DNA of 42,611 nucleotides from Flavobacteriales bacterium (GTDB lineage: Bacteria; Bacteroidota; Bacteroidia; Flavobacteriales_D; Sanyastnellaceae): assembly GCA_027488055.1 (NCBI GenBank), contig JAIYCK010000287.1, positions 1 through 42,611 on the forward strand, in the 5' to 3' direction. Position numbers and translations under genes: made by a program. Under the pieces are notes generated by a model, which did no database searches, was not told the origin of the DNA, and saw only the letters and a program-made list of their open reading frames with translations. Positions within the stretch are counted from its first letter, which is position 1. Every line of letters starts with the position of its first letter. Below are positions 3,504 to 20,400 of the stretch, piece by piece.

Positions 3504-4277
3504 ATGACAATCAAAAAAATCAAAGCACTCATTATTGATGATGAAGAGTTTGCGCGAGAAAACCTGCGCATGATCATTGAGGACTACTGTCCAGATGTGG
3601 AGCTGATAGGTTGCGCTGCATCTGCAGAGCAGGCCAGAGCGCTGCTGCAGACCGAAACCCCCCATTTGATTTTTTTGGATATCATGATGCCTGGGGAAGA
3701 TGGTTTTATGTTTCTCCAATCGCTTTCTGTTCGTAATTTTCATGTGGTATTTACCACGGCGTTCCGCGATTATGCGCTCAAGGCCATCAAGGAAAATGCC
3801 TTGGACTACTTGGAAAAACCGATCGACATTGAGGAACTGCAAAAGGTGGTGGTCCGAGTGCGTGAATTGGAGGAAAAAAAAACACCTCTCCTCACGGAAG
3901 ATAGAGTGACACGCGTGCTAGAAAGTATTGCACTCAACAACACCGTAGAAAAAACTGTGGTGCCTACCAAAGATGGATTGGCGGTCCTAAAAAATACGGA
4001 AATTATCTATTTGGAGGCGGATGAGAACTATACCACCCTGTATGTATTAGGCGGCAAGAAATATGTGAGCAGCAAAGGAATCAAGGCATTTGAAGAAAAA
4101 TTGGATTCTCAAATGTTCTTCAGGCTGCACAAATCATTTATCATCAATATTGCCCACCATCTCAAGGAGTTCAATCGCACCGAAGGCAATATGGCTATAT
4201 TGAGCAACGGCGCGCAAGTACCAGTGAGTCGGCGCAAGTTGCAAGAATTTTTGGATCGATTAATTTCAGATCATTGA
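3504..4277 (+). CDS. LytTR-family response regulator (REC + LytTR DNA-binding domain), 257 aa
   Basis: REC motifs are KALIIDDEE, the phospho-acceptor context LIFLDIMMPGEDG, and the conserved K in LDYLEKP. The C-terminal LytTR-like region includes IIYLEADENYTTLY and FFRLHKSFIINI. Start set at ATG 3504 (MTIKKIKALIIDD). Confidence 0.9.
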   Translation: MTIKKIKALIIDDEEFARENLRMIIEDYCPDVELIGCAASAEQARALLQTETPHLIFLDIMMPGEDGFMFLQSLSVRNFHVVFTTAFRDYALKAIKENALDYLEKPIDIEELQKVVVRVRELEEKKTPLLTEDRVTRVLESIALNNTVEKTVVPTKDGLAVLKNTEIIYLEADENYTTLYVLGGKKYVSSKGIKAFEEKLDSQMFFRLHKSFIINIAHHLKEFNRTEGNMAILSNGAQVPVSRRKLQEFLDRLISDH

Positions 4278-4303
4278 ATAGATTAGGACAAATACGTGTG
4301 AGT

Positions 4304-7291
4304 ATGAAAAACCGAATGAACATTCGGTTCATTTTGCTGATAGCCTTTTTGCGATGTGTACCAGCGTGCGCTCAACAATACAACTATTTGCATTATGGCC
4401 TCAAAGAAGGCTTGGTTCAATCACAAGTGAAAACGCTTTTTCAAGACAGCCAAGGGTTTTTATGGGCTGGAACGGTAGGTGGTGTATCCCGTTTTGATGG
4501 CAAGCAATTTAGAAACTATACGCGCCAAGAGGGTTTGCTAAGCAATCAGGTCAATGTCATTGTTGAAGATAAAATGGGCACCGTCATCATTGGTGGAAGT
4601 GGATGTATTTCTTTCATCGATGGATTGGGAGTGCGCAATGTAATTTTGCCTGCGCCATTGGAGGAGGCCACGGTCAATGCGTTGTTCAAACAGGGTGATA
4701 CTTTATGGGTAGGCACAGAACGTGGCCTATGCTACATTCAAGGAGGGGTAGCCACCTTGTCCGAAACGTTGCTGCGTGAGGCACACATCAAGGCGATCGT
4801 TCCGGGTTCTACAGACCAAGCAATGCTGGTATTGACCAAGGAGAGTTTGTACAAATTGCAAAACAAGGACTTGGTCCTTCATTATGCACCCATGCTCAGT
4901 ACCACTCAGTTTTTTGATATGGTGGAAGCACAGGACGGTGGGGTATGGCTTGCCACTAAGGGTGAGGGGTTGATCAAGCTGTCCAGTGATGGCACCAAAG
5001 CACAAAATTTTTTATCTCACTCGTCGCTTTTTACGACAAATATTACGTCGGTGGTGACCGAGGTAAATGGCAGTTTGTGGTTGTCCAGTCGCAATGGTTT
5101 TTTTCGATTCGATGGCGAACGATTTGAAGGGTATGATCAATCCAACGGTCTTGAGGTCACCGATGTCAGAGATCTCTTAGTAGACCGTGAGGGCAATTTG
5201 TGGATTGCAACCTATGGTGGGGGACTTTTGCGGTTGGCTTCTCGCGAGATGGTCAGTTATACCAAGAAGGACGGGCTTTTGGGCAATGCTGTCATGTCAG
5301 TTTTGGATGATGAGCAAGGAGGCTACTGGCTTAGCACCTTTGATGCGGGCCTGCATCGTTTGAGTGGCGATACCATTGTTTCGGTCGAGACAGGAGCTCG
5401 CAACTCGCGCACATGGTGTTCACTGAAAGATAGCAATGGACGATTTTGGTTTGGTACGAGCGATGGTTTGTTAATGAAATCAAGTGGTTGGAAGCTTTTC
5501 ACAGAGGAACAGGGCCTCAATGATAATTTGGTGTTGTCCCTGCTGGAGGATCTTCAAGGACGTATTTGGATTGGCACATCCAAAGGAGTGTGTTGGATGA
5601 GCGATGGCATTGCAAAACAACTTGACTTACCGGGTGCGCCTGCCAAGCGTATACGCGGAATGGCCTTGGACAAAGCAGGCGACATTTGGATTGCGGCATT
5701 GGATGGGGTTTTCAAATTTTCGAACGGCACATTTACCCACTATGACATGCAGTCAGGATTGCCGGAATTGTCTACCTATTGCATCGCGATTGATCCCCAC
5801 AACAGAGCGTGGGTAGGCACTGCTTTCGGTTTGTGCATGTGGACGGGCGATCGGTTCGAATCCCGATTGGTGTCAGAGGTCAATGGTGGCAATGTGATCA
5901 ACTTTATACAATTTAATCGAGGCAAGGTGTGGCTTGGCACCAATGAGGGATTATTTATGACCAAGGTGCGCGATGCATTATCCATTGGATCATATGATTT
6001 TGACCATTTCGATTTGGATGATGGTTTGATCAGCAACGAGACGAATTTGAATAGCGCTTACACCGATCAAATGGGGAGACTTTGGTTTGGGACATCTGAA
6101 GGACTCATGCTCATGCCGTCGGATCTATTGGAACGACCAGCTAGCATGGCTCCAGGTTTGCACTTGTATGATTTGCAGATCAACTTGACCGCACAACAAT
6201 GGGACGGATTCGGTCTAGAGCGCGACGATGTAACTGGACTGCCTATAGGGCTCCAATTGCAGCATTGGCAGAATGATCTTACTTTTTATTTTACAGGTGT
6301 TTCAATCACTTATCCAGCATCGGTCGAGTATCAATATATGCTGGAAGGATTGGATGAGGATTGGAAGCCAGTAACTCCCAATGCATTTGCAACCTACAGT
6401 GCATTGCCTCATCGCGACTACACTTTCGTGGTCAGGGCGAGGCACAAGGGAGGCGTATGGAGTGATCCTGTGCGCTACTCCTTTGGTGTAGCTGCGCCAT
6501 TTTGGTTACGTGGATGGTTTATATGCCTTGAGATTGTGTTGATTGGAGGAGCGCTGACTTGGTTGATTTGGAATCGCAATCGATCGATTCGAGAGCGCCG
6601 AGAGCGCGAGCTATTTGAAATGAAAAATAGAATGTTGGCGTTGGAGCAACAATCGCTCAATAGCAGTATGAATAGACATTTCATTTTCAATGCACTTAAT
6701 TCCATTCAGTATTATATCAATCGACAGGACCGACTGGCAGCCAATAAGTACCTCAGCGATTTTGCGCGGCTCATTCGTAAGAATTTGGACAGCAGTGAGG
6801 ATAATCTTACAAGTCTAGGCGACGAAATTGAGCGTTTGGAAATTTATTTGCGTTTGGAACACATGCGGTTCAAAGATAAATTCGAGTATACGGTAGAGGT
6901 AGATCCAGCATTGTCGCGCGATCGCATCAAGGTACCCGCCATGTTGATCCAACCGTTTTTGGAGAATAGTATTTGGCACGGACTGTTACCCAAAGAAGAT
7001 GGCGAAGTGGGTCGTCTAACGGTACATTTTTACCTCGAGCAGGGACATGTGGAACTTGAAATCATTGACAACGGAATAGGAATAGAAAGGAGTCTGCAGC
7101 GAAAAACGAGTGCTGACAATCACATCTCCAAAGGCATGGAGATCACTCAGAACCGCATAGACTTGATAAAAAAGACGACCGGAAAGACAATTGAACTTAT
7201 TGGGCCTCAGGATATTATGGATAAAAACGGAAAGTCGAAAGGCACAATCGTGAAAATAAAATTATCTGAAGATTTTCACGAACTTTTTTGA
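4304..7291 (+). CDS. Sensor histidine kinase: signal/TM segment, two-component-regulator beta-propeller repeats, Y_Y_Y domain, TM, LytS/YehU-type His_kinase + HATPase
   Basis: Propeller-type repeats recur (WAGTVGGVSRFDG, LWVGTERGLCYI, LWIATYGGGLLRL, IWIGTSKGVCWM, LWFGTSEGLMLM). The Y_Y_Y-like region reads VEYQYMLEGLDEDWKP...YTFVVRAR. A TM segment (FICLEIVLIGGALTWLIW) follows, then the H-box NRHFIFNALNSIQYYI and the N-box IQPFLENSIWHG. The ORF track opens at TTG 4274, overlapping the regulator stop. I prefer ATG 4304 (MKNRMNIRFILLIAFL). Confidence 0.9.
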   Translation: MKNRMNIRFILLIAFLRCVPACAQQYNYLHYGLKEGLVQSQVKTLFQDSQGFLWAGTVGGVSRFDGKQFRNYTRQEGLLSNQVNVIVEDKMGTVIIGGSGCISFIDGLGVRNVILPAPLEEATVNALFKQGDTLWVGTERGLCYIQGGVATLSETLLREAHIKAIVPGSTDQAMLVLTKESLYKLQNKDLVLHYAPMLSTTQFFDMVEAQDGGVWLATKGEGLIKLSSDGTKAQNFLSHSSLFTTNITSVVTEVNGSLWLSSRNGFFRFDGERFEGYDQSNGLEVTDVRDLLVDREGNLWIATYGGGLLRLASREMVSYTKKDGLLGNAVMSVLDDEQGGYWLSTFDAGLHRLSGDTIVSVETGARNSRTWCSLKDSNGRFWFGTSDGLLMKSSGWKLFTEEQGLNDNLVLSLLEDLQGRIWIGTSKGVCWMSDGIAKQLDLPGAPAKRIRGMALDKAGDIWIAALDGVFKFSNGTFTHYDMQSGLPELSTYCIAIDPHNRAWVGTAFGLCMWTGDRFESRLVSEVNGGNVINFIQFNRGKVWLGTNEGLFMTKVRDALSIGSYDFDHFDLDDGLISNETNLNSAYTDQMGRLWFGTSEGLMLMPSDLLERPASMAPGLHLYDLQINLTAQQWDGFGLERDDVTGLPIGLQLQHWQNDLTFYFTGVSITYPASVEYQYMLEGLDEDWKPVTPNAFATYSALPHRDYTFVVRARHKGGVWSDPVRYSFGVAAPFWLRGWFICLEIVLIGGALTWLIWNRNRSIRERRERELFEMKNRMLALEQQSLNSSMNRHFIFNALNSIQYYINRQDRLAANKYLSDFARLIRKNLDSSEDNLTSLGDEIERLEIYLRLEHMRFKDKFEYTVEVDPALSRDRIKVPAMLIQPFLENSIWHGLLPKEDGEVGRLTVHFYLEQGHVELEIIDNGIGIERSLQRKTSADNHISKGMEITQNRIDLIKKTTGKTIELIGPQDIMDKNGKSKGTIVKIKLSEDFHELF

Positions 7292-7321
7292 CCGAAGTGT
7301 TGTATAAATCAATAGATTACC

Positions 7322-7329
7322 TATATTTG
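7322..7329 (+). promoter_or_regulatory. Candidate Bacteroidota -7 promoter box (TATATTTG = TAnnTTTG) upstream of the acidic lipoprotein gene
   Basis: Exact TAnnTTTG match 22 nt upstream of ATG 7351. Confidence 0.3.
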
Positions 7330-7350
7330 TTAGACCATTATTGGATTTCA

Positions 7351-7650
7351 ATGACCACTTGGATAAAAAACATATCTTGTTTCTTGGTACTCATCCTCGC
7401 TTTGGCTTCTTGCTCAAAGGAGGCGATGTGGACTGAATGCGACGATGAGTTGAAAATCCAACGCACCTTGGAATCAGAAGAGGAGGTGGGTATCCCTAGT
7501 TTAGTGGGATCTGGAGAGGGTGATACGGAAATAGAAGAAGATATTTCTGACGACGACGATGAAGAGGATGACGATGATTTAGAAGATATTTCTGACGATG
7601 ACGATGAAGAAGATGACGATGAGGCGGAGTCGATCAAAGGAAAAAGATAG
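7351..7650 (+). CDS. Small hyper-acidic lipoprotein, 99 aa
   Basis: Signal peptide plus lipobox (FLVLILALASC). The mature part is dominated by D/E and contains a duplicated EDISDDDDEEDDD block. It lies 60 nt downstream of the kinase stop and is followed by a terminator. The longer ORF from 7288 uses a TTG and lacks a signal peptide at its N-terminus. Confidence 0.65.
   Translation: MTTWIKNISCFLVLILALASCSKEAMWTECDDELKIQRTLESEEEVGIPSLVGSGEGDTEIEEDISDDDDEEDDDDLEDISDDDDEEDDDEAESIKGKR
7537..7626 (+). repeat. 45-bp tandem duplication (2 copies) inside the acidic lipoprotein gene
   Basis: Copy 1 is 7537-7581 and copy 2 is 7582-7626. By direct alignment, 38 of the first 40 nt are identical and 39/45 overall. 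The repeat encodes EDISDDDDEEDDD twice. Confidence 0.9.
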
Positions 7651-7668
7651 TTTTTCGAAACGATATTA

Positions 7669-7693
7669 AAAGGAGCAAAAAGCTCCTTTTTTT
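7669..7693 (+). terminator. Rho-independent terminator after the kinase/lipoprotein genes
   Basis: aaaaGGAGC-aaaaa-GCTCCttttttt: a hairpin followed by a T-run, about 20 nt after stop 7650. Confidence 0.6.
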
Positions 7694-7890
7694 GTGCCCA
7701 TTTGCGGGCTCATTACATTGTTTAGTTGGGGTCTTATCATACTATGCAAAGCAACGAAACGATGCCAATGCAAGGCATATGCAGGCATAATTTGCGTTCA
7801 TTGGTATTGTCAAGGCGATGTGTCTTGACCATCTGGTCATCAGGCTAATTAGAGACAAGTAAAACAGCATGTCGGGATCGAATAAGCTCA

Positions 7891-7915
7891 AAAAAAAAGC
7901 CCCGCATAGCGGGGC
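7891..7915 (-). terminator. Rho-independent terminator of the 1246-aa cargo gene
   Basis: GCCCCGC-ata-GCGGGGC hairpin (7899-7915). The 8-A run at 7891-7898 becomes a U-run on the minus strand. It sits 55 nt downstream of stop 7971. Confidence 0.75.
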
Positions 7916-7970
7916 TTTTAAAATTATTTAAATCGATGCACTCAAGGTCTTTGTAGTGCGTCTGGATAAT

Positions 7971-10900
7971 CTATTTCTGAACGATGACCTGGTGGTATTC
8001 TACACCAGTCACAGCAGTCAAACGAACAATGTACTTACCAGCCGCAAGCGCCGAGATATCGATGTTGCGTGCAATGCCATTTTCGAAATTCAATTGCTTG
8101 CTCAATACCACACGGCCAATGTTGTCCAACAAGTCCATATTCACAACACCATTTGCGGCTTCATTGCTGATGTGGATGAATTCGCGTGCTGGGTTTGGAT
8201 ACACACTGAAAGCCAAGCTTTGTAGCTCGTCTACACCAGGATATACACAAGAACCGTCATCGATCGTGGCAGCTGCATTGTAGTTGATAGCCAATGGATC
8301 AGTACATCCATAGATACCACCAGCTGAACAATCATCAGACAATACGCTAGAGGTGAGGAAACAATCAAGGCTGTTTGAATTTACTGCAATCACAACTTGT
8401 GAATCATTGGAGAATGGACCCATGGTGAATGATCCTGGCAATGTCATCACCTGCTGTTGATTGTTCAGGTTGTTGGTGATCGTATAAGGAGCACCGTTAC
8501 CCAAAGCAGCTACTTCTACATCTACATAGAAATTATCTAGGTCACCTTGTTGGCAGTGCACTTGATAGAACATGTTTGGATAGATGCAAGTATACACGCA
8601 TGATCCATCATTGATGGTAGCAAGCGGGTTGAAGTTAAGAGCGTTTGCGTCGGTGCAACCTTCAATTTCTTCGTAAGAGCATGATCCATCATTGATGGTG
8701 GCCGAGCTGTCATAGTTAGTTGCGTTTGGATCCGTGCAGCCAGCGCAAGTGATGTATTCACATGAGCCATCATCAACTACAGCTGCCGCGCTATAGTTAC
8801 AAGCATCTTGGTCCATGCAGCCTTCTGCTAGATTGTAGATACAAGAACCGTCATTGATTGTTGCCAACGGGTTGTAATTCAGAGCTGTGTTATCAGTGCA
8901 ACCCAATACTTCCACAAGCTGGATACAGCCGTTGAAAGGAGGAAGTCCACCACCACAAACGTCGTATGGATCTACTGAAGGCGTGCCAGCGATATCACCA
9001 CAATCATAGCCCCAAGTGCTGCAATTGAAGTTCACATATTGTCCAGCCCACTGATAAAAACCATTGTCTGCAAAATTGTCTCCCAACCAATCCGTTACAC
9101 CGATACTGTGTTGAGTGCCATCACAATCGCAGATTTGAATTTCGTTGTTGCAATTACCAGAGTTGAATGCATAAAGGAATGAGGCTGCACCATCATTGGT
9201 GGTATAGTACATGACGTACTCCGTGTTAGGAGTCAGATTGAAAAGATCGCCCTGATCACCACTTCCGTAGCCATAGATTGACAAATCCAATGGTTCGAAA
9301 GCACCGCCATTGGTTGATAGATACAATGTTTCAACAGTGCAAGGTCCATCGAAATCAAATGTGTAACTCACATGTGGAGTCAAGACATTATTGTAAGAGG
9401 CGCAATCTTCCATCATCACAGTCATGGCAAGATTTTGACAAACGGTTTGCGGACCAGCGCAGAATTCAGCACTGTAACTATAGGTGAAATCAGCACCATT
9501 CGCAAAAATCACATATTGTCCACTTGTCCAATCCCATACTCCGAAAGTTCCATCGCTGAGGCAATCCAATGAGCTCATGCCATCACCAAATGAATCAGCT
9601 ATTTCAAATGTGTAGCATCCTGCTGGCAAGCAAATACTTGTGGTATAGAATGTGTCATCTGTAGTGAAACTACCGGCTGGCAATGTCATTACGAGCGAAT
9701 TGTTGGCATTGTAAACGTTCACAGAAGTTTCGAGAGGGAAACAGTCAGTGGTGACATCGATATCGATGTTGTAGCAAAGTTCATCCACACAACCATTTGC
9801 TGGAGGCAAGAAACCAGAGCAAACACCATATGGGTCGTAGAAAACATCACCCGCTAGTGCACCGTCACCGCAGTCAAAGCCCCATGTAGCACAATAGAAG
9901 TTGACAGGCAATGACAAGTCGCCATTCCAGTAATAAGTGCCATCGTCTTGCGCACCGTCACCGAGCCAAGCAGTGGCCTCAATTGGCAATTGAGTTCCTG
10001 CGCAGTCGCAAATGGTTTCACCGCTCAAACAAGCGTCCGTGATAAAGTTTGTGACCGGTGATTCTGTGCCGTCATCCAACACATAGAACACACTGTAAAC
10101 CGCATCTTGTACGTTGAAATAAAGATCGATCATATCACCTGCACCAAAGCCATACGCAGTCAAGTCAAGGTAAGTATACGTGCCGCCATTGACGGAAGTA
10201 TACACTCCTGCAACAGAGCAAGGACCGTTGTAATTGGCAATGATGGTTCCTGATGGTGTGAAGCTTCCACCTACGGTTTCGATACAACCGGTGTCGATAT
10301 AGTTAATCGTTAAGTTGGTGCAGCTCACTGTTTGGCAGTTTCCAGAAACAAAAGCATAGCTGATAGATTCTGTACCGTCATTCAATACGTAGTAGTAGGT
10401 GTGAACGGTGTTGTCCTCATAGATCATCAATGGAATGGCATCACCGCTGAAGAACAAACCATCGAGTATGATTTCTGTCCAACCTGTAAGTGCAGTGTTG
10501 ATCCAGATCGAGTATACGTTACAATCACCCGTATAGGTTGGGTAGAAGTCTACAAACTGAGCATCACCGCTGCAGCCCATGTCGAATGCATTGGACCCCG
10601 TGAAGGCACATGTATTGATGCAAGCGCCCGTGTTGTAGAACTGCACTGGAGCAACTGATCCGTCTGACAACACAATTTCAAATTGATATTGTGTATTCAA
10701 CTCATAGAGGTAAAGGTTCATCATATCACCTGATGTGTAGCCCAATAAGCTTAGGTCGACATAATTCCAACCTGAATTGATGGTATACACCCATACGCCC
10801 TCTACAGAGCATGCACCTAAATAATCCACGTAAAGAGAAACCTCTTCGGCATCTGTCCAACATGTATAGAAATAGGCGTTTGTGTTGAATATCGAACAAG

Positions 10901-11711: not shown

Positions 11712-11750
11712 GGTTTAGTGTTTAATTGTTTGTGTTTCGAAAAAAGCACG

Positions 11751-11758
11751 CAAAACTA
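11751..11758 (-). promoter_or_regulatory. Candidate -7 box (TAGTTTTG on the minus strand) for the 1246-aa cargo gene
   Basis: CAAAACTA on the plus strand is TAnnTTTG on the minus strand, 40 nt upstream of start 11711. Confidence 0.35.
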
Positions 11759-11902
11759 GGAGATATTCGCTTAAATTGCAATTTTGTGTGACCAAACTCA
11801 GTCATTTTGACTACCTAAAGTGTTAAATGCTCGATACATACGCAGTTTGGAAAATACACTTATGAATGCTCTTACGATTTGTGAATCATCGTTTTAGCGT
11901 GT

Positions 11903-11910
11903 TATTTTTG
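11903..11910 (+). promoter_or_regulatory. Candidate -7 box (TATTTTTG) for the C25 peptidase gene
   Basis: TAnnTTTG match 25 nt upstream of ATG 11935. A TTTG at 11878-11881 could serve as the -33 element. Confidence 0.35.
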
Positions 11911-11934
11911 TGCGACCGTGAGGTGAATTAAACC

Positions 11935-14900
11935 ATGAGATTATTTTTAATTATAATTGGAACACTTTGGTTATCAGCCCGCTGTTTGGGTCAACTTGGC
12001 CATGAATGGATCGATTATAATACTACCTATTGGCATTTTCCTGTCGTTCAGAAAGGATTGCATCGCATTTCATATGATGACTTGCTGCAAGCCGGAATGC
12101 CCGTCAGCAACATACATCCTGCACAGCTGAGACTCTATGCGAAAGGCAAGATGGTTTCATTGCATTTTATTGGGGATTCAGACGAGGTGTTGGAGCAGGG
12201 CGAATACTATTGTGCTTACCTCGATCGTCACAGGGGAGAAATGGAAACCGGCGCATATGGGCTTGAAGCTTATAGGCCTGATAATGAGTATAGCCTCTTC
12301 AATGATACGCTTCACCACTATTTGACCGTCACTCCTGATAACGGGATGCTCATGGCAGAAATAGCCATGCCTTTGGACACAAACCTTCCCATTCATACAT
12401 CTGTGGGATATACGGTTCGCCATGCATTGCATGCTCGATATTATGCGGGACGTGCCGATAACAATGGCGTCTCATTGCCCACGTATGATGAAGGCGAGGG
12501 ATGGTTTGACGAAGCCTTTGGAACTACAACCTACGAGGTAGACTTGCCTTTGACTCACCGCAGCAGTGCATTTAGCTCCGTCCATCTGCAATGGAAAGTA
12601 GCGGGGGTGAATTCTGCATTGGGGATTCCCAATCATCATTTACAAATGGGAGTGGGCACTGATTTTGAGCCTCTTTTTGACACGACGTTCACAGGACATA
12701 AGCTAATTCAGAAGCACCTTGAAGTGCTAATGGATTCGGAAGCAACCACGTTGAATGTGGGCTTCAAAGCAATCAACGATCTCGGGGTGAGTTCGGATTT
12801 GATGGCTCTTGGATCCATGCAATGTACTTACCAGCGATTGCCCATATTCAGTAACACAGCCCCGCATGAATTTATCGTACAAGCGATTGAAGGAACCTCT
12901 TGGACCAAATTACCTCTGTCGCTCCAAGGCTATGTCCAGCCCACCGTTTATCGCATATTGGGTGACCTTGTGCAGCATTTGCCTTTGGTGTTCAACGGAA
13001 CGAATTGGGACGTTTATATTCCGTGGAGTGGCGAATTGCAGCAGCAACTGATCCTGGTAGACCAGAATGCACCATTGTCCATTGTACCGCCTACGCCATA
13101 TACGATGATCGACTATGTCAGCTCAATGGAGGACAATCAATTGATTATTGTGACCCATCGCTCTTTGTGGAATGCTGCGCAGAACTATGCAGTGTTCAAA
13201 CAAGCGAATGGTCATTCGGTTTTGGTATTGGATGCAGAGCAGCTTTATCATCAATACGGAGGAGGAGTCATGAAAAATCCTCTGGCCATTCGACGGTGCA
13301 TGGAGCATGCCTTTTCTTCAGGCATTGCGCCAGGTCATTTGTTCATCATTGGAAAAAGCATTCATGAGTCGCCAGTGAGTGGTGAGGCGGGCGCTCGGAA
13401 TACACCGACACTTTATGAGCGGAATTTGGTTCCCACGTGGGGCAATCCAGGAAGTGATGCATTGTATACTGCAGGACTCAATGGGACACTCTATGAGCCC
13501 GCGATTCCCACAGGCAGACTTGCAGCGGCCAATTCCGATGATGTATTGAATTATTTGAATAAGGTGGTGGAGCATTCCCTCCAACCACCTGCCATGTGGA
13601 AAAAGAATGTGATGCATTTTGGGGGAGGCAGTATTGCTTACGAACAAGAAATATTTCGGTCCTATCTCAATGCTTATAAATCAACTGCGGAGGGGCTGCA
13701 GTGGGGTGCAGAAGTACATGGTTTTTTTAAGAATACTTCGGAACCCATTCAACTTGATGTAAGCGACTCGATTCAGTTGTTGATCAACCAAGGTGTTTCT
13801 GTCATGACTTTTTTTGGCCATGCCAGCAGCACGGGATTTGACCAAAACATCGATGCACCAGAGAATTATAGCAATCAAGGCAAGTATCCTTTGTTGATAG
13901 GAAACTCATGTTATACTGGGAACATTCATTTGGCAGCAGCACAGAGCACGAGTGAACGTTTTGTCTTGGCTCCCAATCGAGGGGTCATTGGTTTTTTGGC
14001 CAAAGGCGATTTAGGTATTCCGACCTACTTGGACATCTACACAGCCAACTTTTATCGCCATTTATTTCAGGTGAGTTATGGCGCCAGCATTGGCACGTGT
14101 ATGCAAAGGTCCATTGCTGACTTCCAAAGTGTTGGCGACTTTTATGAACAGAATGTGGCACAAACCTTCATGTTTCATGGCGATCCGAGCATCATACTTT
14201 TTCCCCATGCACTGCCCGATTTATCCATTGATATCGCCGACGTGATCCTGCCCAACAGCCCACTAGCGGCTTCGAATGAAACAGTTTTGGTGCGTGCTGT
14301 AGTGCATAATATTGGCAAGGCCACAAGTGAGAGCATCGAGGTCGTATTGCGACAACAAACCCCACTGGGCGTGGACACAGCCTATGTGGCTACATTGAAT
14401 GGATTATTGCACAGCGACACCGTGCAATGGATCGTTGCTGGATTGGATGAAGTGGGAACACATCAATTCTCCGTTGAGGTAGATTATCCGGGCAATGCCA
14501 TAGAGGAATTAGAGGAAGCGGCCAACAATGTGGCAAGTGGTATCCAACTCCAAGTGACTGACGGCGATATCCGACCAGTTTATCCATATCCTTTTGCAGT
14601 GATCGATGAGTCACAGCCCATTTTGCGGGCGAGCACTGGCTTTCCGTTAGAGCCTATGCGCAATTATCGTCTGCAAGTAGATACAACGGCGTCATTCGAT
14701 TCACCACTCATGGCAGAACACGACATCGCCTCCGTTGGCGGAGTCATTGAGTGGCCATTGCCATTTGTATTGCAAGATAGCATGGTCGTCTTTTGGCGCT
14801 GCTCATCGATTGGCGGAGATTGGCGCTGGCGCACCGCATCTTTTCAGTATGTGAGCAACCAACGTGGCTGGGGTATGCAACACCGCGATCAATTCAAGTC

Positions 14901-16908
14901 TATCGCAGCCAATGGCGTGAACTACGATGCTCAAAGCATGAATTGGTCATTTGAAACCAGTTCCGTCAATTTGAAGTGCGAAGTATATGGCGCTGCGAAT
15001 TCGTATTATGAGAATTTGGCAACGCGCTATCAATTGAATTTGGATGTCCAAGAGTATGGAGGCTATGGTTACTCCAGTCCAGCTCTGATGGTCGCCGTGT
15101 TGGACAGCGCCACGTTGCAACCATGGAAGAGTAATTATGCAGGTTTAGCCCCCGATTTCGATTTTGGTAATACACTGGCCAGTGCCAATGCCCGCTCAAG
15201 GCAAGAGAAGTATTTTATTTTTCAGCAGTCCGATCCTGTCCAAATGATTGGCCTTGCGAACATGCTCAACAATGAAATAGAGGATGGACATCACCTTTTG
15301 TTGTACACGTGGCAATATGCAATTCCTTCTGCTTGGCCAAATGAATTGACAGAGGCTTTCGACCTTTTGGGACTCAGCACGCTCACAGCTATGGCTGATA
15401 GTCTACCTTTTATTCAGTACATGCAAATGGGCCACTCGGAGAATATGGAGGGTGTCATTGGGCAAAATGCAGAGTCGTTTTTGCAGTTAGAAGTAGACTT
15501 AACAGGAGCTCAAGGATTCGGAATACTGACAACACCAATCATTGGCCCTGCAATGGCATGGGAAGAAACTGAATGGTTGTTCGGTCCTGCAGGGTTGGGA
15601 ACCACAGACTCACAAATGATAGAAACCATCGGTTCAATTCCTGCAAATCCGACCACTTTGGATGCACAAATTGATCAATGGATCAATCCCGGAAATGACA
15701 TAGGTGTGATTGATCCTATGGATTATTCTTTCGTTCAAATGCGAACCGTGCTTTCCGACAGTGCGGCAGGAACCGCTGCCCAATTGAAACGAATGCATGT
15801 GTGGTTTGATGAAGCGCCTGAGTTAGCATTGAAAGGTGAAGATGGATTCTATCGTTCTGCGGATACCATTGCTCAAGGCAATACGTGGAGCATGATGATG
15901 CCTGTGGGTAATATTGGACATGTACAAACGGATAGTGTAAGGGTTTTGTATTATGTTGTGGATTCCAAAGGAGGCATACATAAGTTACCATATGATCGGC
16001 AAGCACCAATGGAAGCAGGCGCATTGTTGCGCGACACCCTGCGCATAGCCACAGCGGACTTACCTGGATTGAATCGCTTGGTGATGATAGTGAATCCGCT
16101 TGACAGCAATACCATGCAGCAGGATCAAAAGGAGCAATTTTATTTCAATAATGTGCTGGAGCTGCCATTTTTTGTGCAAGCAGATAAGGTTCCACCCATC
16201 CTGGAAGTGACCGCCGACGGAAGGCATCTGCTGGACGGAGAAATCATTTCATCACGCCCCGAAATATTGATCAGTTTGCGGGATGAAAACCGATATATAT
16301 GGATGAATGAACTATCGGATACTTCCAATTTTCGCATTTATTTGACCAATCCACTGCAAGAGGTCATGGTGCTTCGATTTGATGATCCAACGATAGAGGT
16401 TGCGCTTTCAAGTAACTCGAATGTGCCATTTCACATTTATTATAGGCCAACCTTCCTGAGGGACGGTATGTATGATTTGAGGGTACAGGCGAACGACAAA
16501 AGCGGCAATCAAAGCGGTGAATTGGATTATCGAATTCATTTTAAGGTGATCAATCAAGCCAGCATCAGTGCGATGATGAATTATCCCAATCCATTTAGCA
16601 CGTCGACCCGTTTTGTTTTCACGATCACAGGGTCAGAGGTTCCAGATGATATCAAAATTCAAATCATGTCAATAGGAGGTGAGGTCGTACGTGAAATCAT
16701 GAAAGACGAGCTCGGCCCTTTGCATATAGGTCGCAACATGACGGAATATGCTTGGGATGGTCGTGATGAATTTGGTGATCAATTGGCCAATGGGGTGTAC
16801 TTCTATCGCACGGTTGTGCGTTATCAGAATGAAGATATGAAACACTTAGAAAGCGCTGCAGATGCATATTTCAAAGAAGGATTTGGCAAGATGTACTTGA
16901 TGCGATGA
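11935..16908 (+). CDS. PorU-like peptidase C25 (gingipain-fold) family protein, 1657 aa, with CARDB-like Ig domains and a FlgD-Ig/CTD-like C-terminal domain plus a tail
   Basis: Signal peptide MRLFLIIIGTLWLSARCLG. The N-terminal block EWIDYNTTYWHFPVVQKGLHRISYDDLLQAG is typical of long Bacteroidota C25 homologs. The catalytic-dyad contexts are MTFFGHASSTGF (His629, codon 13819-13821) and LLIGNSCYTGN (Cys659, codon 13909-13911). A CARDB-like segment reads VLVRAVVHNIGKATSESIEV. The C-terminus is NYPNPFSTSTRFVF...EYAWDGRDEFGDQLANGVYFYRTVV, followed by a ~28-aa extension. Confidence 0.85.
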   Translation: MRLFLIIIGTLWLSARCLGQLGHEWIDYNTTYWHFPVVQKGLHRISYDDLLQAGMPVSNIHPAQLRLYAKGKMVSLHFIGDSDEVLEQGEYYCAYLDRHRGEMETGAYGLEAYRPDNEYSLFNDTLHHYLTVTPDNGMLMAEIAMPLDTNLPIHTSVGYTVRHALHARYYAGRADNNGVSLPTYDEGEGWFDEAFGTTTYEVDLPLTHRSSAFSSVHLQWKVAGVNSALGIPNHHLQMGVGTDFEPLFDTTFTGHKLIQKHLEVLMDSEATTLNVGFKAINDLGVSSDLMALGSMQCTYQRLPIFSNTAPHEFIVQAIEGTSWTKLPLSLQGYVQPTVYRILGDLVQHLPLVFNGTNWDVYIPWSGELQQQLILVDQNAPLSIVPPTPYTMIDYVSSMEDNQLIIVTHRSLWNAAQNYAVFKQANGHSVLVLDAEQLYHQYGGGVMKNPLAIRRCMEHAFSSGIAPGHLFIIGKSIHESPVSGEAGARNTPTLYERNLVPTWGNPGSDALYTAGLNGTLYEPAIPTGRLAAANSDDVLNYLNKVVEHSLQPPAMWKKNVMHFGGGSIAYEQEIFRSYLNAYKSTAEGLQWGAEVHGFFKNTSEPIQLDVSDSIQLLINQGVSVMTFFGHASSTGFDQNIDAPENYSNQGKYPLLIGNSCYTGNIHLAAAQSTSERFVLAPNRGVIGFLAKGDLGIPTYLDIYTANFYRHLFQVSYGASIGTCMQRSIADFQSVGDFYEQNVAQTFMFHGDPSIILFPHALPDLSIDIADVILPNSPLAASNETVLVRAVVHNIGKATSESIEVVLRQQTPLGVDTAYVATLNGLLHSDTVQWIVAGLDEVGTHQFSVEVDYPGNAIEELEEAANNVASGIQLQVTDGDIRPVYPYPFAVIDESQPILRASTGFPLEPMRNYRLQVDTTASFDSPLMAEHDIASVGGVIEWPLPFVLQDSMVVFWRCSSIGGDWRWRTASFQYVSNQRGWGMQHRDQFKSIAANGVNYDAQSMNWSFETSSVNLKCEVYGAANSYYENLATRYQLNLDVQEYGGYGYSSPALMVAVLDSATLQPWKSNYAGLAPDFDFGNTLASANARSRQEKYFIFQQSDPVQMIGLANMLNNEIEDGHHLLLYTWQYAIPSAWPNELTEAFDLLGLSTLTAMADSLPFIQYMQMGHSENMEGVIGQNAESFLQLEVDLTGAQGFGILTTPIIGPAMAWEETEWLFGPAGLGTTDSQMIETIGSIPANPTTLDAQIDQWINPGNDIGVIDPMDYSFVQMRTVLSDSAAGTAAQLKRMHVWFDEAPELALKGEDGFYRSADTIAQGNTWSMMMPVGNIGHVQTDSVRVLYYVVDSKGGIHKLPYDRQAPMEAGALLRDTLRIATADLPGLNRLVMIVNPLDSNTMQQDQKEQFYFNNVLELPFFVQADKVPPILEVTADGRHLLDGEIISSRPEILISLRDENRYIWMNELSDTSNFRIYLTNPLQEVMVLRFDDPTIEVALSSNSNVPFHIYYRPTFLRDGMYDLRVQANDKSGNQSGELDYRIHFKVINQASISAMMNYPNPFSTSTRFVFTITGSEVPDDIKIQIMSIGGEVVREIMKDELGPLHIGRNMTEYAWDGRDEFGDQLANGVYFYRTVVRYQNEDMKHLESAADAYFKEGFGKMYLMR

Positions 16909-16913
16909 AGGCA

Positions 16914-16945
16914 TAAAAAAAGGATGGCTTTTGCCATCCTTTTTT
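16914..16945. terminator. Bidirectional rho-independent terminator shared by the convergent C25 gene and cargo 2 gene
   Basis: aaaaaaaa-GGATGGC-tttt-GCCATCC-tttttt: a 7-bp GC-rich stem with an A-run on one side and a T-run on the other. It lies between stops 16908 and 16966. Confidence 0.8.
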
Positions 16946-16965
16946 ATTATTTATGAATAGGAAAT

Positions 16966-19900
16966 TTATTCCACAATCATCTTGATCGTCTGAATATTAG
17001 CACCATCCTTGACTTGGATGCAGTAAATACCTGCCTGCAAATCTTGATTTGGATGGATCATAGTTGACAATGAACCATCTACTTGATACGTCTGGTTCAG
17101 AACAATTTTTCCGAGAGCATCGATCATACACACATCAATTGCATTGCTTTTGACGTCGGATGCATTGAGAATAAATCCTTGACCGTTATTTGGGTTGGGA
17201 TACACAGCTATGTGCTGATCATTGCCTTCCTCCATGCGGTGCTTAGCGGGATTAGATTGCGTGATGGCTTCTGTTGCTTCCAACACCGATCCCCCCACGA
17301 AAATGGTTTGAGCGGTTCCGAATACACCTTGGTTGACACCTCCGACACCGAAATTGGGACGAATACGCACGCTGTAATATGATTGCGGCTGAATACTTTG
17401 TCCGGCTGGTGATGTTGTGCCAGGCAATGTGAGCGAAATGATACGAGATGTATTGGTATATGTAAACGGAATACCAGCTGGTGTTGCATCGTTGCAGCCC
17501 ACTATGGGAGTGAACTCGAAGGTATAGTTGGTGACACCGCAAACAAATGGATCAGTGCGCAAAAAAGAAGTAGGCAATAGTGTGGCAGGAGCGGAGCATC
17601 GCTGACCTGAACGCACTTGCAGATCACTGTGAGGAGCGATTTGAACAATGCAACCTGGATTTGAACCATAAACGATAATATCTACATCATCCCCAGCTGC
17701 ATTTTGTAAGGTGTTGTAATTCGCATCGACGATTACATAATAGGAATTTCCCGGAACAAGTCCGAAAGCGTTGTTTCCAAGGCTCACGCTGCCAGTTGTG
17801 GTTAAAGTACCACCACCAATTGATCCAGGCGTTGGCGTGAATGTCACCGTATAAGAATTGGCACCCGTCCATTTTGGCTTGAAAGTGGAACAAATACTTA
17901 ACGGCTGGCTCACGTTGGTTGGGCAGCCTGATCGTAGGAGTTGTTTGATGCAAACAGAAAATCCGCCACCCAGACCACTTGCAGCGCCGACAGAGACATA
18001 ATATGTTTGGCCAGGCGTAAGACCATTGAAATTGAGTGTTTCAGTACCTTCGGTCGCAGAGCTTGCGTTTTCGGTGCCGCCAATAACTGGGCTGAATGTG
18101 GCATCAAGCAATTGGATCGCTCCATCCATATTGGTGTGGCTAAGTTGGATACTAACACTGGGTAAATCTGCCACAAAGCTATACCATACATCGGGTCCGA
18201 TATAGGCATTGCTTTCGTTTGAGTTAGTCGCATTCGAACAGTTACCACTGTAGGTAGCACATTGTGGGTACCACGCATTGCCGCCAGGAACAAATGCTGC
18301 ATTGGATGGTCCATCATTGGCTGGTGGACAAATACTACAAGAAGCATAACATACTACATTCAAGGTCATGTTTGCTGCAGCTAAAGTGAATGAACGATTG
18401 CCACTTGTGTTGCATCCGCCGGGTACAGTTTCATCTTGTCCCCATGCATTACCATTCACAAATTTGTAATAATATGTGGTGTTTTCAGGCATACTCAAAG
18501 TCACCGTATAAATACCATCGGCATTTCCATCCGACATGGCCGTTGTAGCCGGATTCCAATCTTGGAAGGAACCAGCTATGTGCACTCCTTGGGGAGAAAC
18601 GGTTTGTCCAGACATATCTACTTGGAAGGTCACATCGTAATTCCCATTGGGACAGTCTGCGCACAGTCCAAAGCAGACTGTTGACAGAGAGACGTTCGAT
18701 GTAGCCACAGCTCCTGAGCGGTTGGTGGAAGTAGCACATGCGCCAGGCACGGACTCAGCATTCGGCCAGTTATTTCCGTTGATGAATTTGTATTGGAAAG
18801 AAGTGTTTTCCGGGATACTTACCGTGACGGTATAGACACCATCGAGGTCAGGATCGGTCATAAGTGTAGTCGCAGGAAGCCATCCTTGGAAGCTGCCTGC
18901 TACGTGCACGCCATTTGGACTGACCGTTTGTTGACTCATATTGACGGCAAAAGTGACATCGTAATTGGCAGCTGGGCAAACAGTACAAAGTGCGTAACAA
19001 ACCACAGGGATGGTCATATCGCTATTGCCCACTGTCACCGAACGATTGCCGCCAGAATTGCAGGCACCGGGCACAGTCTCAGCATTCGGCCATCCATTGC
19101 CGTTGATGTATTTGAACGGATAAGTTACTCCTTCGGCAAGAGGCAAGGTGATCGTATAAATACCATCGGCGTCAAGGTCGGTCATCTCCGTGGTGGCTGG
19201 ATTCCAACCTTGGAAGGGACCGGCCAAATGCACCCCATTGCCGCTCACTGTGGAGCTGCTCATGTTGACTTGGAAGGTTACATTGCGGGTAGGAGGGCAT
19301 GCGGCACATGCATTCCAACAAACCAAACCTACAGAGGCGTCTGCATTTCCAACCGAATAAACACGGTTGTTGCCATCACCACATGGAGCGCCAATGTTGC
19401 CTTCGTACGTAGCGCCATTCAAGAATTTGTAGGAGATGTTGGTGTTTTGAGCCACCGATGTAGTGTATGTATAAATGCCACCACCTGAATTGGTCATGGC
19501 GACGGGTGTGAAGCCATTGAAAGATCCGGCGATTTTTACAGTTCCTCCAACGAATTCTTGGCTCATATTTACTTCAAAGGTGATATTCACAGGAGGCAAC
19601 GGGGTATTTACACTATAGGTGTAATTTCCACCTCCATTGCGGTGCTGATGGATGGCTACCTTATCCGCATCAGCAATGGTGGGATTGCTGACAGTTGTTG
19701 TAAACAGATAATATGACACTACAGCTCCCGCGCTTTGCGGAGGAATAGCCGCTGTACCTGTGGAGCCCACGAAACTTACTGGAACTAAAGAAGAGGACGA
19801 AAATCCATCGGTGGAATAACGGATGTATGCTAGTTCTTCTGGACTTGGAGCTGCGCTAGCTGTTACGGTCAACGTAACTGCGTCGGAACTTGTAATATTC

Positions 19901-20400
19901 CCATTGGTAGGAGAGCTGGAAATACCGCTAACCGTAATGGGTTGGGCCGATGTTTCCATGAAAATTAGCTGCGTATTGGTATAACCAATGTCTACCCAGT
20001 TCATTGTATACCATTTATTGTTGGCTATGGTTATTGTATGGTTGCCTCCGCCAAAAGAGCTCGTTTGCAATCCATTGAAGGCAATTGTTGCTCCTCCCCA
20101 TCCATTGGCCCAATAGTTTGATGTAGGACCGCTAGAGAGTTTGAATTGGTAGGTGCCTCCAACCAAATTGCCGCCTGAGGCTGCTACACTGAACTGTGTT
20201 TGCCATTTGCGCGTGCCAAAGCCAGTTACGGCCAAAGTGCCACCAGCGCCTTGGTTGGGATTGCGCAATACAGGATTGGTTGGTGCATTGGTCCAGCTAT
20301 CCCAGGCACCGGGCATATTCAATCCTTCGGGCTCATAAATTTGAGCGAAATACAGCGAGCTGATGGCCAATAGCCACGCCATGATCAAAAACTTTTTCAT
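16966..20400 (-). CDS. Secreted multi-domain protein with four tandem CBM20/48-like (starch-binding/E-set type) modules and a type-A T9SS C-terminal sorting domain, 1144 aa
   Basis: Start set at ATG 20400 (MKKFLIMAWLLAISSLYFAQ, a signal peptide). Four ~105-aa repeats have the form VTFxVNMS..V..GVHxAGSFQGWxPATTxMxD.D.DGIYTVT....YxYKFxNGNxW...ExVPG.C..S.NR....C...C..CP. A PPC-like segment follows. The tail is VYPNPNNGQGFILNASD...AGIYCIQVKDGANIQTIKMIVE. Confidence 0.88.
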   Translation of the reverse strand: MKKFLIMAWLLAISSLYFAQIYEPEGLNMPGAWDSWTNAPTNPVLRNPNQGAGGTLAVTGFGTRKWQTQFSVAASGGNLVGGTYQFKLSSGPTSNYWANGWGGATIAFNGLQTSSFGGGNHTITIANNKWYTMNWVDIGYTNTQLIFMETSAQPITVSGISSSPTNGNITSSDAVTLTVTASAAPSPEELAYIRYSTDGFSSSSLVPVSFVGSTGTAAIPPQSAGAVVSYYLFTTTVSNPTIADADKVAIHQHRNGGGNYTYSVNTPLPPVNITFEVNMSQEFVGGTVKIAGSFNGFTPVAMTNSGGGIYTYTTSVAQNTNISYKFLNGATYEGNIGAPCGDGNNRVYSVGNADASVGLVCWNACAACPPTRNVTFQVNMSSSTVSGNGVHLAGPFQGWNPATTEMTDLDADGIYTITLPLAEGVTYPFKYINGNGWPNAETVPGACNSGGNRSVTVGNSDMTIPVVCYALCTVCPAANYDVTFAVNMSQQTVSPNGVHVAGSFQGWLPATTLMTDPDLDGVYTVTVSIPENTSFQYKFINGNNWPNAESVPGACATSTNRSGAVATSNVSLSTVCFGLCADCPNGNYDVTFQVDMSGQTVSPQGVHIAGSFQDWNPATTAMSDGNADGIYTVTLSMPENTTYYYKFVNGNAWGQDETVPGGCNTSGNRSFTLAAANMTLNVVCYASCSICPPANDGPSNAAFVPGGNAWYPQCATYSGNCSNATNSNESNAYIGPDVWYSFVADLPSVSIQLSHTNMDGAIQLLDATFSPVIGGTENASSATEGTETLNFNGLTPGQTYYVSVGAASGLGGGFSVCIKQLLRSGCPTNVSQPLSICSTFKPKWTGANSYTVTFTPTPGSIGGGTLTTTGSVSLGNNAFGLVPGNSYYVIVDANYNTLQNAAGDDVDIIVYGSNPGCIVQIAPHSDLQVRSGQRCSAPATLLPTSFLRTDPFVCGVTNYTFEFTPIVGCNDATPAGIPFTYTNTSRIISLTLPGTTSPAGQSIQPQSYYSVRIRPNFGVGGVNQGVFGTAQTIFVGGSVLEATEAITQSNPAKHRMEEGNDQHIAVYPNPNNGQGFILNASDVKSNAIDVCMIDALGKIVLNQTYQVDGSLSTMIHPNQDLQAGIYCIQVKDGANIQTIKMIVE
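18328..19590 (-). repeat. Four tandem ~300-315-bp coding repeats (CBM-like modules), diverged to roughly 50-60 percent amino acid identity by eye
   Basis: In ORF-track numbering, the repeats span residues 302-400, 403-507, 511-615 and 619-722 of ORF 16966..20493. Confidence 0.85.

Follow-up and report, generated by a model that had tools for sequence, protein, structure and literature searches.

Gene content of the locus

The stretch of DNA analysed here (the window) is an entire 42.6-kb contig of 42,611 nucleotides, JAIYCK010000287.1, from a Flavobacteriales bacterium (GCA_027488055.1). Between the gene of a 598-aa membrane protein and radA, it carries six genes (Table 1): a LytTR-type two-component pair, an acidic lipoprotein candidate, two large proteins with T9SS C-terminal domains (CTDs), called cargo 1 and cargo 2 below, and, between these two, the gene of a PorU-like C25 peptidase homologue, porU2. 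The coordinates and strands of the six genes, as well as the two flanking genes, are those given in an earlier, sequence-only reading of this DNA. That reading also called the region an "island"; in the sense of horizontal acquisition this label is without support, since the GC content is flat (0.43-0.48) across the region.

Table 1. Features of the porU2 region (window coordinates)
Feature	Position	Strand	Basis
LytTR-type response regulator, receiver and LytTR DNA-binding domain	3504-4277 (alternative start 3453)	+	Pfam Response_reg 3e-21, LytTR 6.5e-20
Sensor histidine kinase, LytS-type His_kinase and HATPase	4304-7291 (alternative start 4274)	+	Pfam Reg_prop 1e-39, His_kinase 9e-18, Y_Y_Y 6e-10
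Acidic lipoprotein candidate, 99 aa	7351-7650 (alternative start 7288)	+	lipobox LILALAS|C; 38 D+E in 99 aa
Symmetric G+C-rich hairpin, bidirectional terminator-like, between converging lipoprotein and cargo 1 genes	7895-7919		11-bp stem, 7 GC pairs, found on both strands
Cargo 1, 1246-aa Cys-rich secreted protein, signal peptide, type A T9SS CTD	7971-11711	-	Por_Secre_tail/TIGR04183 at aa 1170-1245
Divergent intergenic region cargo 1/porU2, 223 bp	11712-11934		sequence and three-genome alignment
-7 box, cargo 1 side	~11750-11757	-	TAnnTTTG
-7-like element, porU2 side	~11903-11910		TATTTTTG
porU2, 1657-aa PorU-like C25 cysteine peptidase/transpeptidase homologue	11935-16908	+	NCBIfam NF052324
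C25 catalytic domain, aa 404-753	13144-14193	+	Pfam PF01364 (Peptidase_C25) 7e-53
Catalytic residues His629, Cys659	13819-13821, 13909-13911	+	invariant in alignments
PorU2-specific extension, aa 867-1540	14533-16554	+	beta-sandwich string, AF2 mean pLDDT 85.9
PorU-type C-terminal domain, type A-like T9SS CTD	16555-16905	+	aligned to 6ZA2 residues 1039-1145
Bidirectional terminator-like hairpin between porU2 and cargo 2	16916-16945		AAAAAAGGATGGC-TTTT-GCCATCCTTTTTT, 13-bp stem
Cargo 2, 1144-aa secreted protein, type A T9SS CTD	16966-20400 (alternative start 20493)	-	Pfam AMPK1_CBM 1e-16, CBM_20 3e-14, CBM_48 3e-13, Por_Secre_tail 8e-9; TIGR04183
M43 protease, type A CTD cargo	23779-25971		

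The periplasmic part of the kinase is a Reg_prop beta-propeller/Y_Y_Y domain, and the N-terminal sequence of the kinase shows a signal/TM segment. The response regulator is 80-84% identical to its counterparts in two related genomes (L081 and L082), both of which have an ORF of 99-100 aa at the position equivalent to that of the lipoprotein candidate. The candidate itself matches no Pfam or NCBIfam family. Cargo 1 contains 64 cysteines (5.1%) and five CxDxxAxNY..DGSC repeats; Pfam and NCBIfam searches found no family match in it besides its CTD. Its full-length homologues are limited to L081, L082 and a third genome, L098 (72-80% identity), and its distribution in metagenomes is narrow. Cargo 2, whose signal peptide begins at the ATG at 20400, consists of four CBM20/48-like repeats, an fn3-like region and the CTD, and is 48-71% identical to its counterparts in the same three genomes. 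A third cargo with a type A CTD, an M43 protease, is encoded just beyond the region, 3 kb from cargo 2, which indicates that CTD cargos are simply common in this genome.

Cargo 1 and porU2 do diverge from one intergenic region, as had been noted. An alignment of three genomes shows that its cargo 1-proximal ~100 bp are conserved, including a -7 box and the palindrome AAATTGCAATTT, whereas the porU2-proximal part conserves only a -7-like element. The two sides have no direct repeats in common, LytTR-like ones included. At the sequence level, this shows that cargo 1 and porU2 have separate putative promoters and no common operator. The suggestion that the adjacent two-component system switches them together is thus not borne out, as no LytTR-type repeat links the promoters. 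At the other end, porU2 and cargo 2 converge on a single terminator-like hairpin, also in agreement with the first description; an A-run on one side of it and a T-run on the other make termination possible both ways.

PorU2 and its partner barrel

The porU2 product passes the NCBIfam model NF052324, "putative T9SS sortase PorU2" (593 bits over aa 5-865, cutoff 450), and falls far short on the PorU model NF033707 (176 bits, cutoff 420). It is a PorU homologue distinct from canonical PorU, as had been supposed, and begins with the signal peptide MRLFLIIIGTLWLSARCLGQ. His629 and Cys659 are unchanged in alignments of 23 and of 35 sequences, and they align with the catalytic His and Cys of the Porphyromonas gingivalis T9SS C-terminal signal peptidase/sortase PorU (PG0026; 6ZA2) and of the gingipain RgpB (1CVR); Cys659, previously put forward for mutation, is therefore the invariant catalytic cysteine. 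The likeness to PorU extends over the multi-domain N-terminal half, the C25 domain and the CTD, which is retained in PorU. PorU is also the best structural match: with aa 1-866 as modelled by AF2 (pLDDT 88.6), 6ZA2 comes first (E 1e-28, ~960 columns), and the family profile matches 6ZA2 at 4e-21. PorU2 is nevertheless ~500 aa longer than PorU, which lacks its ~700-aa extension. This extension holds a small alpha/beta insert (~aa 1060-1155), has no Pfam domain, gave generic multi-Ig matches only in a fold search, and is present at a constant position in at least 825 representatives (E<=1e-30). Full-length homologues measure 1620-1740 aa and have a fixed architecture; the window protein is like other members in length, extension and CTD.

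An HMM iterated from the CTDs of the window's cargos matches all 81 of the 81 PorU2 family members searched. No other domain of the family is as well conserved as the CTD, with 81, 60 and 55% identity to close, mid and far relatives, respectively, and this holds in the clade without porV2 linkage too; for ordinary type A CTDs, mutual identity stays below 40% (PMC12618676). Such conservation suits a docking domain that stays on the protein, as reported for PorU/PorV (PMC10202324), better than a signal that is discarded.

PorU2 could itself be a T9SS cargo, a large gingipain-like surface or secreted C25 protease or adhesin acting on external substrates. C25 is the gingipain family, and the secreted proteases RgpB and Kgp (1CVR, 4RBM), which are also T9SS CTD proteins, are significant fold matches with the same catalytic fold and dyad. 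A type A-like CTD together with ~700 aa of Ig-like domains is typical of surface proteins, and porU2 is the fastest-evolving gene of the block (61% identity, versus 86-92% for the housekeeping neighbours); fast evolution is usual for exposed proteins. We consider this reading unlikely. The gingipain matches are much weaker than those to PorU (5e-5 for the profile against RgpB; 1e-17 over ~500 columns for the fold) and are confined to the catalytic and Ig-like domains, with no prodomain homology seen, whereas the PorU likeness takes in the N-terminal domains and the CTD. Gingipains have their own CTDs cleaved off and no barrel partner gene, unlike the PorU2 family, in which pairing in an operon with a PorV/PorQ-family barrel is conserved; the family-wide conservation of the CTD points in the same direction.

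The PorU2 family occurs in more than 531 species-representative genomes of Flavobacteriales, Bacteroidales, Chitinophagales and Saprospiraceae. In 62 of 80 loci from such genomes, porU2 is directly preceded by a co-oriented ORF of ~365 aa. These barrel ORFs score 497-503 bits on NF052325, "PorV2" (cutoff 325); with the PorV and PorQ models they reach no more than 38-46 and 76-78 bits, respectively, well under either cutoff. The porV2-porU2 arrangement is also present on a 5.9-Mb contig, and the other genes conserved around it have housekeeping functions (CDP-alcohol phosphatidyltransferase, Lnt, TyrRS). PorU2 resembles PorU in that the gene usually neighbours that of a PorV-family barrel, but the order is barrel-then-peptidase instead of the classical porU-then-porV of PG0026/PG0027 and Fjoh_1556/1555, and the barrel comes from a separate family. 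PorU2 is a widespread, database-named, experimentally unstudied second family of T9SS sortase-like enzymes. We found no paper reporting experimental work on PorU2 or PorV2, which are known as NCBIfam names; two literature matches to these names proved to be artefacts produced by superscript citation numbers.

It seems improbable that PorU2 has replaced canonical PorU and serves as the only PorU-type enzyme of its lineage, a general housekeeping CTD peptidase/sortase. The intact dyad, the PorU-like N-terminal half, the PorU-type CTD and the housekeeping neighbourhoods of many family members would agree with this. No canonical porU or porV was found in 1.86 Mb of flanks from PorU2-bearing genomes, a weak argument since these reach only 10 kb to either side of each locus. 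However, the curated name PorU2, attached to a model separate from that of PorU, implies an additional copy, if by naming only, and the family has a barrel of its own, distinct from PorV and PorQ.

In the window, the usual upstream porV2 is missing: tblastn and a six-frame PorV2 HMM search detected no PorV-family gene in the whole 42.6 kb, which extends the initial remark that no porV-like barrel gene adjoins the C25 gene. Likewise, porV2 is absent from every porU2 locus of the window's clade, a monophyletic group of Flavobacteriales nested among PorV2-linked lineages. Judging from this placement, porU2 was separated from porV2 once in the clade and the loss of adjacency is derived. The missing barrel is consequently no sign of a cargo-dedicated module.

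Conservation of the gene block

The sequence-only reading proposed porU2 as a cargo-dedicated processing/attachment enzyme, specialised for the flanking CTD proteins and perhaps co-switched with them by the LytTR system. The order response regulator-kinase-lipoprotein-cargo 1-porU2-cargo 2 is indeed intact in four genomes (the window's, L081, L082 and L098), in a clade where porU2 is uncoupled from porV2. These genomes are genus-level relatives, though, which also have the housekeeping flank in common (radA 86% and kynU 92% identical), so that the synteny is expected by descent. The predicted linkage of C25 orthologues to such cargos and a LytTR pair does not extend beyond them: no homologue of cargo 1, cargo 2, the LytTR pair or the acidic lipoprotein was found at 80 PorU2 loci of other species or in seven other contexts of the window's own clade, which also argues against specialisation for these cargos.

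An accepted case of cargo-dedicated T9SS accessory proteins is provided by the type B CTD cargos of F. johnsoniae and their cognate PorP/SprF-like shuttle genes, where the accessory gene stands beside its cargo according to the same logic (PMC12618676). By comparison, the cargos of the window have type A CTDs, as ordinary as that of the nearby M43 protease, the accessory protein would be a peptidase and not a shuttle barrel, and the linkage to the cargo is not conserved. The terminators between the units and the very different conservation of the two promoter sides likewise make a dedicated, co-regulated module highly doubtful.

Role of PorU2

The best explanation, to which we give a probability of about two in three, is that porU2 encodes an ordinary PorU2 family member with a constitutive, general role, and that the 17-kb block is a juxtaposition instead of a dedicated module. 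A two-gene porV2-porU2 unit set among housekeeping genes, the arrangement of most lineages, suggests that the enzyme works generally and constitutively, not on particular cargos. By homology, PorU2 would be exported by Sec and then pass through the T9SS by means of its own type A-like CTD. This domain would not be removed and would dock on the PorV/PorQ-family barrel PorV2, resulting in surface retention. The His629/Cys659 dyad would cleave the CTDs of T9SS cargos, and PorU2 might also transfer them to a surface acceptor. After its single uncoupling from porV2, the gene would have been found in varied neighbourhoods. The block would then represent four independent units, each with its own promoter or terminator (the LytTR operon with the acidic lipoprotein, cargo 1, porU2, and cargo 2 with its starch-binding modules), kept by common descent among the four genomes.

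Some cargo-linked placement of porU2 may exist within the clade. A type A CTD cargo adjoins the gene in three of eight independent contexts, and in a fourth a single gene intervenes. This nominal enrichment (p = 7e-4 at the gene level, 0.007-0.18 at the locus level) would suit a dedicated enzyme but has no equivalent in the 80 other loci (p = 0.2). The porU2 neighbours of other clade members are unrelated, and the adjoining cargos belong to different, non-homologous families.

Identity of the C25 protein

The 1657-aa protein was first taken, from sequence alone, for a paralog of the sortase PorU rather than the housekeeping enzyme, and profile searches bear this out. On NF052324, 'putative type IX secretion system sortase PorU2', its aa 5-865 match model positions 4-879 with 593.4 bits, above the cutoff of 450, whereas the canonical PorU model, NF033707, gives 176.3 bits, below its cutoff of 420, and matches over model positions 6-744 of 1095 only. 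The 120 full-length homologs, 1620-1740 aa long, consist of a PorU-like half, a family-specific extension and a C-terminal domain (CTD), and a genome scan placed relatives in more than 531 species representatives among the Flavobacteriales, Bacteroidales, Chitinophagales and Saprospiraceae; cultivable carriers include Terrimonas ginsenosidimutans NA20, Pseudoflavitalea sp. G-6-1-2 and Flaviaesturariibacter amylovorans JCM 17919. The extension (aa 867-1540), which is absent from canonical PorU, keeps a constant position in the 825 or more representatives (clusters at 50% identity, E<=1e-30) that have it; a permissive Pfam scan gave no match to it. The CTD HMM matches all 81 of 81 family members.

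PorU, a Cys/His cysteine peptidase, cleaves the CTDs off type IX secretion system (T9SS) cargos and transfers the cargos to A-LPS (PMC10202324). The catalytic His and Cys of Porphyromonas gingivalis PorU (6ZA2) and of RgpB (1CVR) are matched in the alignment by His629 and Cys659 of the window protein, and these two residues are invariant in the two PorU2 alignments, A1 and A3. PorU's own CTD aligns with the last ~110 aa of the window protein. By analogy with PorU, the window protein may have a sortase activity. Canonical PorU keeps its own CTD, docked on PorV, and the CTD of the window protein may likewise be retained and docked.

The AlphaFold model of aa 1-866 (pLDDT 88.6, pTM 0.86) has 6ZA2 as its best fold match (E 1e-28, ~960 aligned columns), followed by the gingipains (E 1e-17). 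That PorU2 is a gingipain-like cargo protease, the reading to which these second-ranking matches and the dyad shared with RgpB would belong, appears unlikely beside the closer match to PorU and the PorU-type CTD. The model of aa 761-1657 (pLDDT 85.9) shows a string of beta-sandwiches, a small alpha/beta insert and the CTD; a fold search with this C-terminal half returned generic multi-Ig matches only (TM 0.1-0.17).

Conservation within PorU2 is highest in the CTD, which shares 81, 60 and 55% identity with close, intermediate and distant relatives, and next highest in the C25 domain (76, 58 and 40%). Between the window and L098, the locus of a genus-level relative, PorU2 (61% identity; 2335-7311 in L098) is the fastest-evolving gene of the syntenic block, compared with 71-72% for the cargos, 86% for radA and 92% for kynU. 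Most of the changes fall in aa 1-400, 756-866 and 1161-1540, the C25 core and the CTD being conserved; diversifying pressure on exposed domains may lie behind this pattern.

The window locus is a further member of the PorU2 family, which is named in databases and experimentally uncharacterised. We found no paper on PorU2 or PorV2: text matches to these names in T9SS papers proved to be superscript citation numbers (PorV^23^, PorU^29^), and a comparative T9SS phylogeny paper does not keep the paralogs apart.

The region around porU2 and its transcription signals

ORF calling reproduced exactly the gene layout proposed earlier (see the table), including the 223-bp spacer from which cargo 1 and porU2 diverge.

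Features of the window in the porU2 region and beyond it
Feature	Position	Strand	Description
598-aa membrane protein	1624-3420	plus	no Pfam or NCBIfam match
LytTR regulator	3504-4277		receiver and LytTR domains (Pfam, NCBIfam)
Sensor kinase	4304-7291		Reg_prop, Y_Y_Y and His_kinase domains (Pfam, NCBIfam)
Small acidic ORF (lipoprotein)	7351-7650		lipobox; 38 acidic residues in 99 aa; no known family
Hairpin	7668-7690		terminator-like
Hairpin	7895-7919		symmetric; terminator-like on both strands
Cargo 1, 1246 aa	7971-11711	minus	type A T9SS CTD as sole recognisable domain
Cargo 1-proximal spacer	11712-11810		nearly invariant; L081 ~9869-9960, L082 ~9763-9850
Palindrome in this spacer	~11771-11782		AAATTGCAATTT; perfect, 12 bp
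porU2, 1657 aa	11935-16908	plus	Peptidase_C25 (Pfam/NCBIfam)
Hairpin	16916-16945		symmetric; A-run on one side, T-run on the other
Cargo 2	16966-20400	minus	CBM20/48 repeats and type A CTD
Peptidase_M43 metalloprotease, 730 aa	23779-25971	minus	two fn3 domains, PPC domain, Por_Secre_tail
gltX and glnS	28125-31361	plus	glutamate--tRNA and glutamine--tRNA ligases; tandem neighbours, 12 bp apart
816-aa ORF	36151-38601	minus	no Pfam or NCBIfam match

Both large flanking proteins are T9SS type A CTD cargos, with visible N-terminal signal peptides and sorting domains above cutoff: cargo 1 and cargo 2 score 39.0 and 43.5 bits on TIGR04183 (cutoff 23) and 42.9 and 36.2 bits on PF18962 (cutoff 27). Cargo 1 contains 64 cysteines and five CxDxxAxNY..DGSC repeats, for which Pfam holds no model; a permissive Pfam scan of the protein gave no further match. 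The ~27-aa repeat, found at aa 930-1160 of cargo 1, is shared by unrelated proteins encoded on metagenome contigs of marine and freshwater origin (L091-L094). A type A CTD is carried as well by the M43 protease just outside the region, so that such cargos are simply common here (3 in ~30 genes).

Compositionally the region is no island. Horizontal acquisition was rejected, since GC content and skew are flat across the window and L098 shows synteny of the housekeeping flanks. The window gave no matches in Rfam or tRNA scans. In the genus-level relative L082, the protein at the position of the 598-aa membrane protein is tagged DUF2079, and at another porU2 locus, L097, a DUF2079 gene lies directly 3' of porU2; BLAST did not confirm homology of the L082 protein to that of the window, and detected no similarity for the L097 gene.

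The divergent spacer was aligned across three syntenic genomes, the window, L081 and L082. The sequence hardly varies over the ~100 bp adjoining cargo 1; the coding genes of the same genomes are 56-80% identical. Within this stretch lie the palindrome and, on the minus strand, a -7 box of the Bacteroidota type (TAnnTTTG). It could serve a dimeric regulator as operator, or form a structured 5' leader. On the porU2 side, only that gene's own -7-like box is kept. A sigma-70 promoter scan was set aside, as it found 42 promoters against 35 +- 7 in shuffled sequence and the promoter type is wrong for Bacteroidota.

Terminator-like hairpins lie between the lipoprotein and cargo 1 and between porU2 and cargo 2, the latter having the symmetry expected of the shared bidirectional terminator proposed before. 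Two of these hairpins lie in the 320-bp gap between the lipoprotein gene and the 3' end of cargo 1. The transcription units of the block have separate promoter-like elements, with no common operator seen among them and no direct repeats of the LytTR-bound kind common to their upstream regions. Nothing in the sequence ties the two-component pair to porU2, the gene that it was proposed to switch.

PorV2, the usual partner of porU2

When the flanking ORFs of 80 porU2 loci were clustered, an ORF of ~365 aa was found directly upstream of porU2 on the same strand at 60 of them (62 with an HMM), at a median gap of 55 bp; most of the other loci are simply short of upstream sequence. Its product reaches 497-503 bits, against a cutoff of 325, on NF052325 ('putative type IX sorting system protein PorV2') and lies far under the cutoffs of the PorV and PorQ models. 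An upstream porV2 is thus the typical context of PorU2, outside the NF052324 model itself, and the matches to both models mean that database curators have already recognised a second PorU-like/PorV-like pair. Housekeeping genes (CDP-alcohol phosphatidyltransferase, Lnt, TyrRS) make up the remaining recurrent neighbours. The PorV2 family is very large: at least 7993-8000 candidates, essentially all of those scored, pass E 1e-20 and 1e-30 in protein searches, and it comprises at least 8000 clusters at 90% identity. What the analysis shows is thus membership of the PorU2 family, a PorU-like fold, an intact dyad, a PorU-type CTD and an operon that the family usually forms with this PorV-family barrel gene.

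The window departs from this arrangement. As the sequence-only reading had remarked, porU2 has no porV-like neighbour; indeed, no PorV-family gene occurs anywhere in the window, and PorV, PorQ and PorZ are all absent from its 42.6 kb, which make up a whole contig. A PorZ match on the sensor kinase (73 bits, cutoff 260) was rejected as reflecting beta-propeller repeats in common. Adjacency to porV2 is also missing at 10 of 10 other loci of the window's clade, hereafter the unlinked clade. In a neighbour-joining tree that took in seven of its loci (the window, L081-L084, L086 and L088; L095-L098 were left out), these form one clade nested among PorV2-linked Flavobacteriales, which indicates that the adjacency was lost in a single derived event in the window's clade. 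Loci of four other lineages with at least 9.9 kb of upstream sequence have no porV2 beside porU2 (L051, L078, L040 and L013, from Saprospiraceae, Chitinophagales and two Bacteroidia MAGs), so that the pair has been uncoupled several times independently.

No porV2 elsewhere in the unlinked-clade genomes was found among the PorV2 matches listed, mostly close relatives. The exceptional conservation of the PorU2 CTD, in this clade also, is consistent with a fixed, putative docking partner encoded elsewhere. The 1.86 Mb of flanks from PorU2-bearing genomes contain no canonical PorU, PorV or PorQ and no second C25 or PorV-type gene; these flanks say nothing on whole genomes. PorU2 as the sole housekeeping sortase of its lineage is even less probable than the gingipain-like protease.

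Cargo linkage and a possible second sorting branch

The sequence-only reading held that the C25 protein is dedicated to its two flanking cargos, and expected its orthologs to be linked to such cargos and to a LytTR pair. Outside close relatives this is not so. Among the 80 porU2 loci, the two cargos, the regulator, the kinase and the lipoprotein each have 0-1 weak matches, and there is no enrichment of type A CTD proteins next to porU2 (5/75 at +1 and 1/69 at -1, against a background of 3.8%; p = 0.2), the lone -1 case being the window itself. L081, L082 and L098 have kept the block entire, and in L098 the radA/kynU flank is conserved along with it; since all three are genus-level relatives, synteny by descent explains the conservation. 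In the next tier (40-45% PorU2 identity), the seven contexts examined (L083, L084, L086, L088, L095, L096 and L097) contain neither cargo, nor the two-component pair, nor porV2. From the cargo side, JGI metagenomes yielded only an identical fragment of cargo 1 and partial matches to its Cys repeats. Linkage to one cargo family across lineages, which would mark an accessory module dedicated to its cargo on the pattern of the type B CTD/PorP-SprF pairs, is thus lacking for porU2.

Within the unlinked clade, 3 of 8 independent contexts have a type A CTD cargo as the immediate neighbour of porU2, and a fourth has one at a distance of one gene. The adjoining cargos belong to different families (LTD, LTD/CotH and the window's pair), and the enrichment is nominal: p = 7e-4 when counted by gene and 0.007-0.18 when counted by locus, according to the background that is assumed. 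It is a weak hint that lends no support to dedication to particular cargos. Of the earlier interpretation, then, the PorU paralogy stands, while dedication to cargos or control by the two-component system is not demonstrable; the window does not provide evidence of a sortase of that kind.

The current T9SS model, based on P. gingivalis and F. johnsoniae, has a single PorU sortase and a single PorV shuttle for the type A CTD cargos as a whole (PMC12618676, PMC10202324). Many environmental Bacteroidota encode a second PorU-like/PorV-like pair, and this abundance suggests an unstudied cargo-sorting branch. By analogy with PorU/PorV (PMC10202324), PorU2 would be exported by Sec and pass through the T9SS by means of its CTD, which would be kept and dock on PorV2; at the surface, PorU2 would then cleave cargo CTDs or carry out transpeptidation. 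A more far-reaching reading, to which we give a probability of only about 0.2, is that PorU2 and PorV2 form a second, parallel T9SS sorting and attachment branch, which handles a type A CTD cargo subset of its own or uses another surface acceptor, and that porU2, freed from porV2 in the unlinked clade and repeatedly moved beside CTD cargos, hints at an evolving cargo-linked specialisation of which the window, with its two-component system, would be the most developed example. The one useful addition made by the window is that porU2 can be genetically uncoupled from porV2; otherwise it holds one more member of the family. The PorU2 family itself deserves the attention of T9SS researchers.

LTD and/or CotH proteins are encoded beside porU2 at four loci that are otherwise unlike (L095, 6243-9782; L097, 6908-9145; L084, 8899-9834; L089, 16270-17850), one of them PorV2-linked. 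Three of the proteins carry a type A CTD, and those of L095 and L097 are distant homologs of each other.
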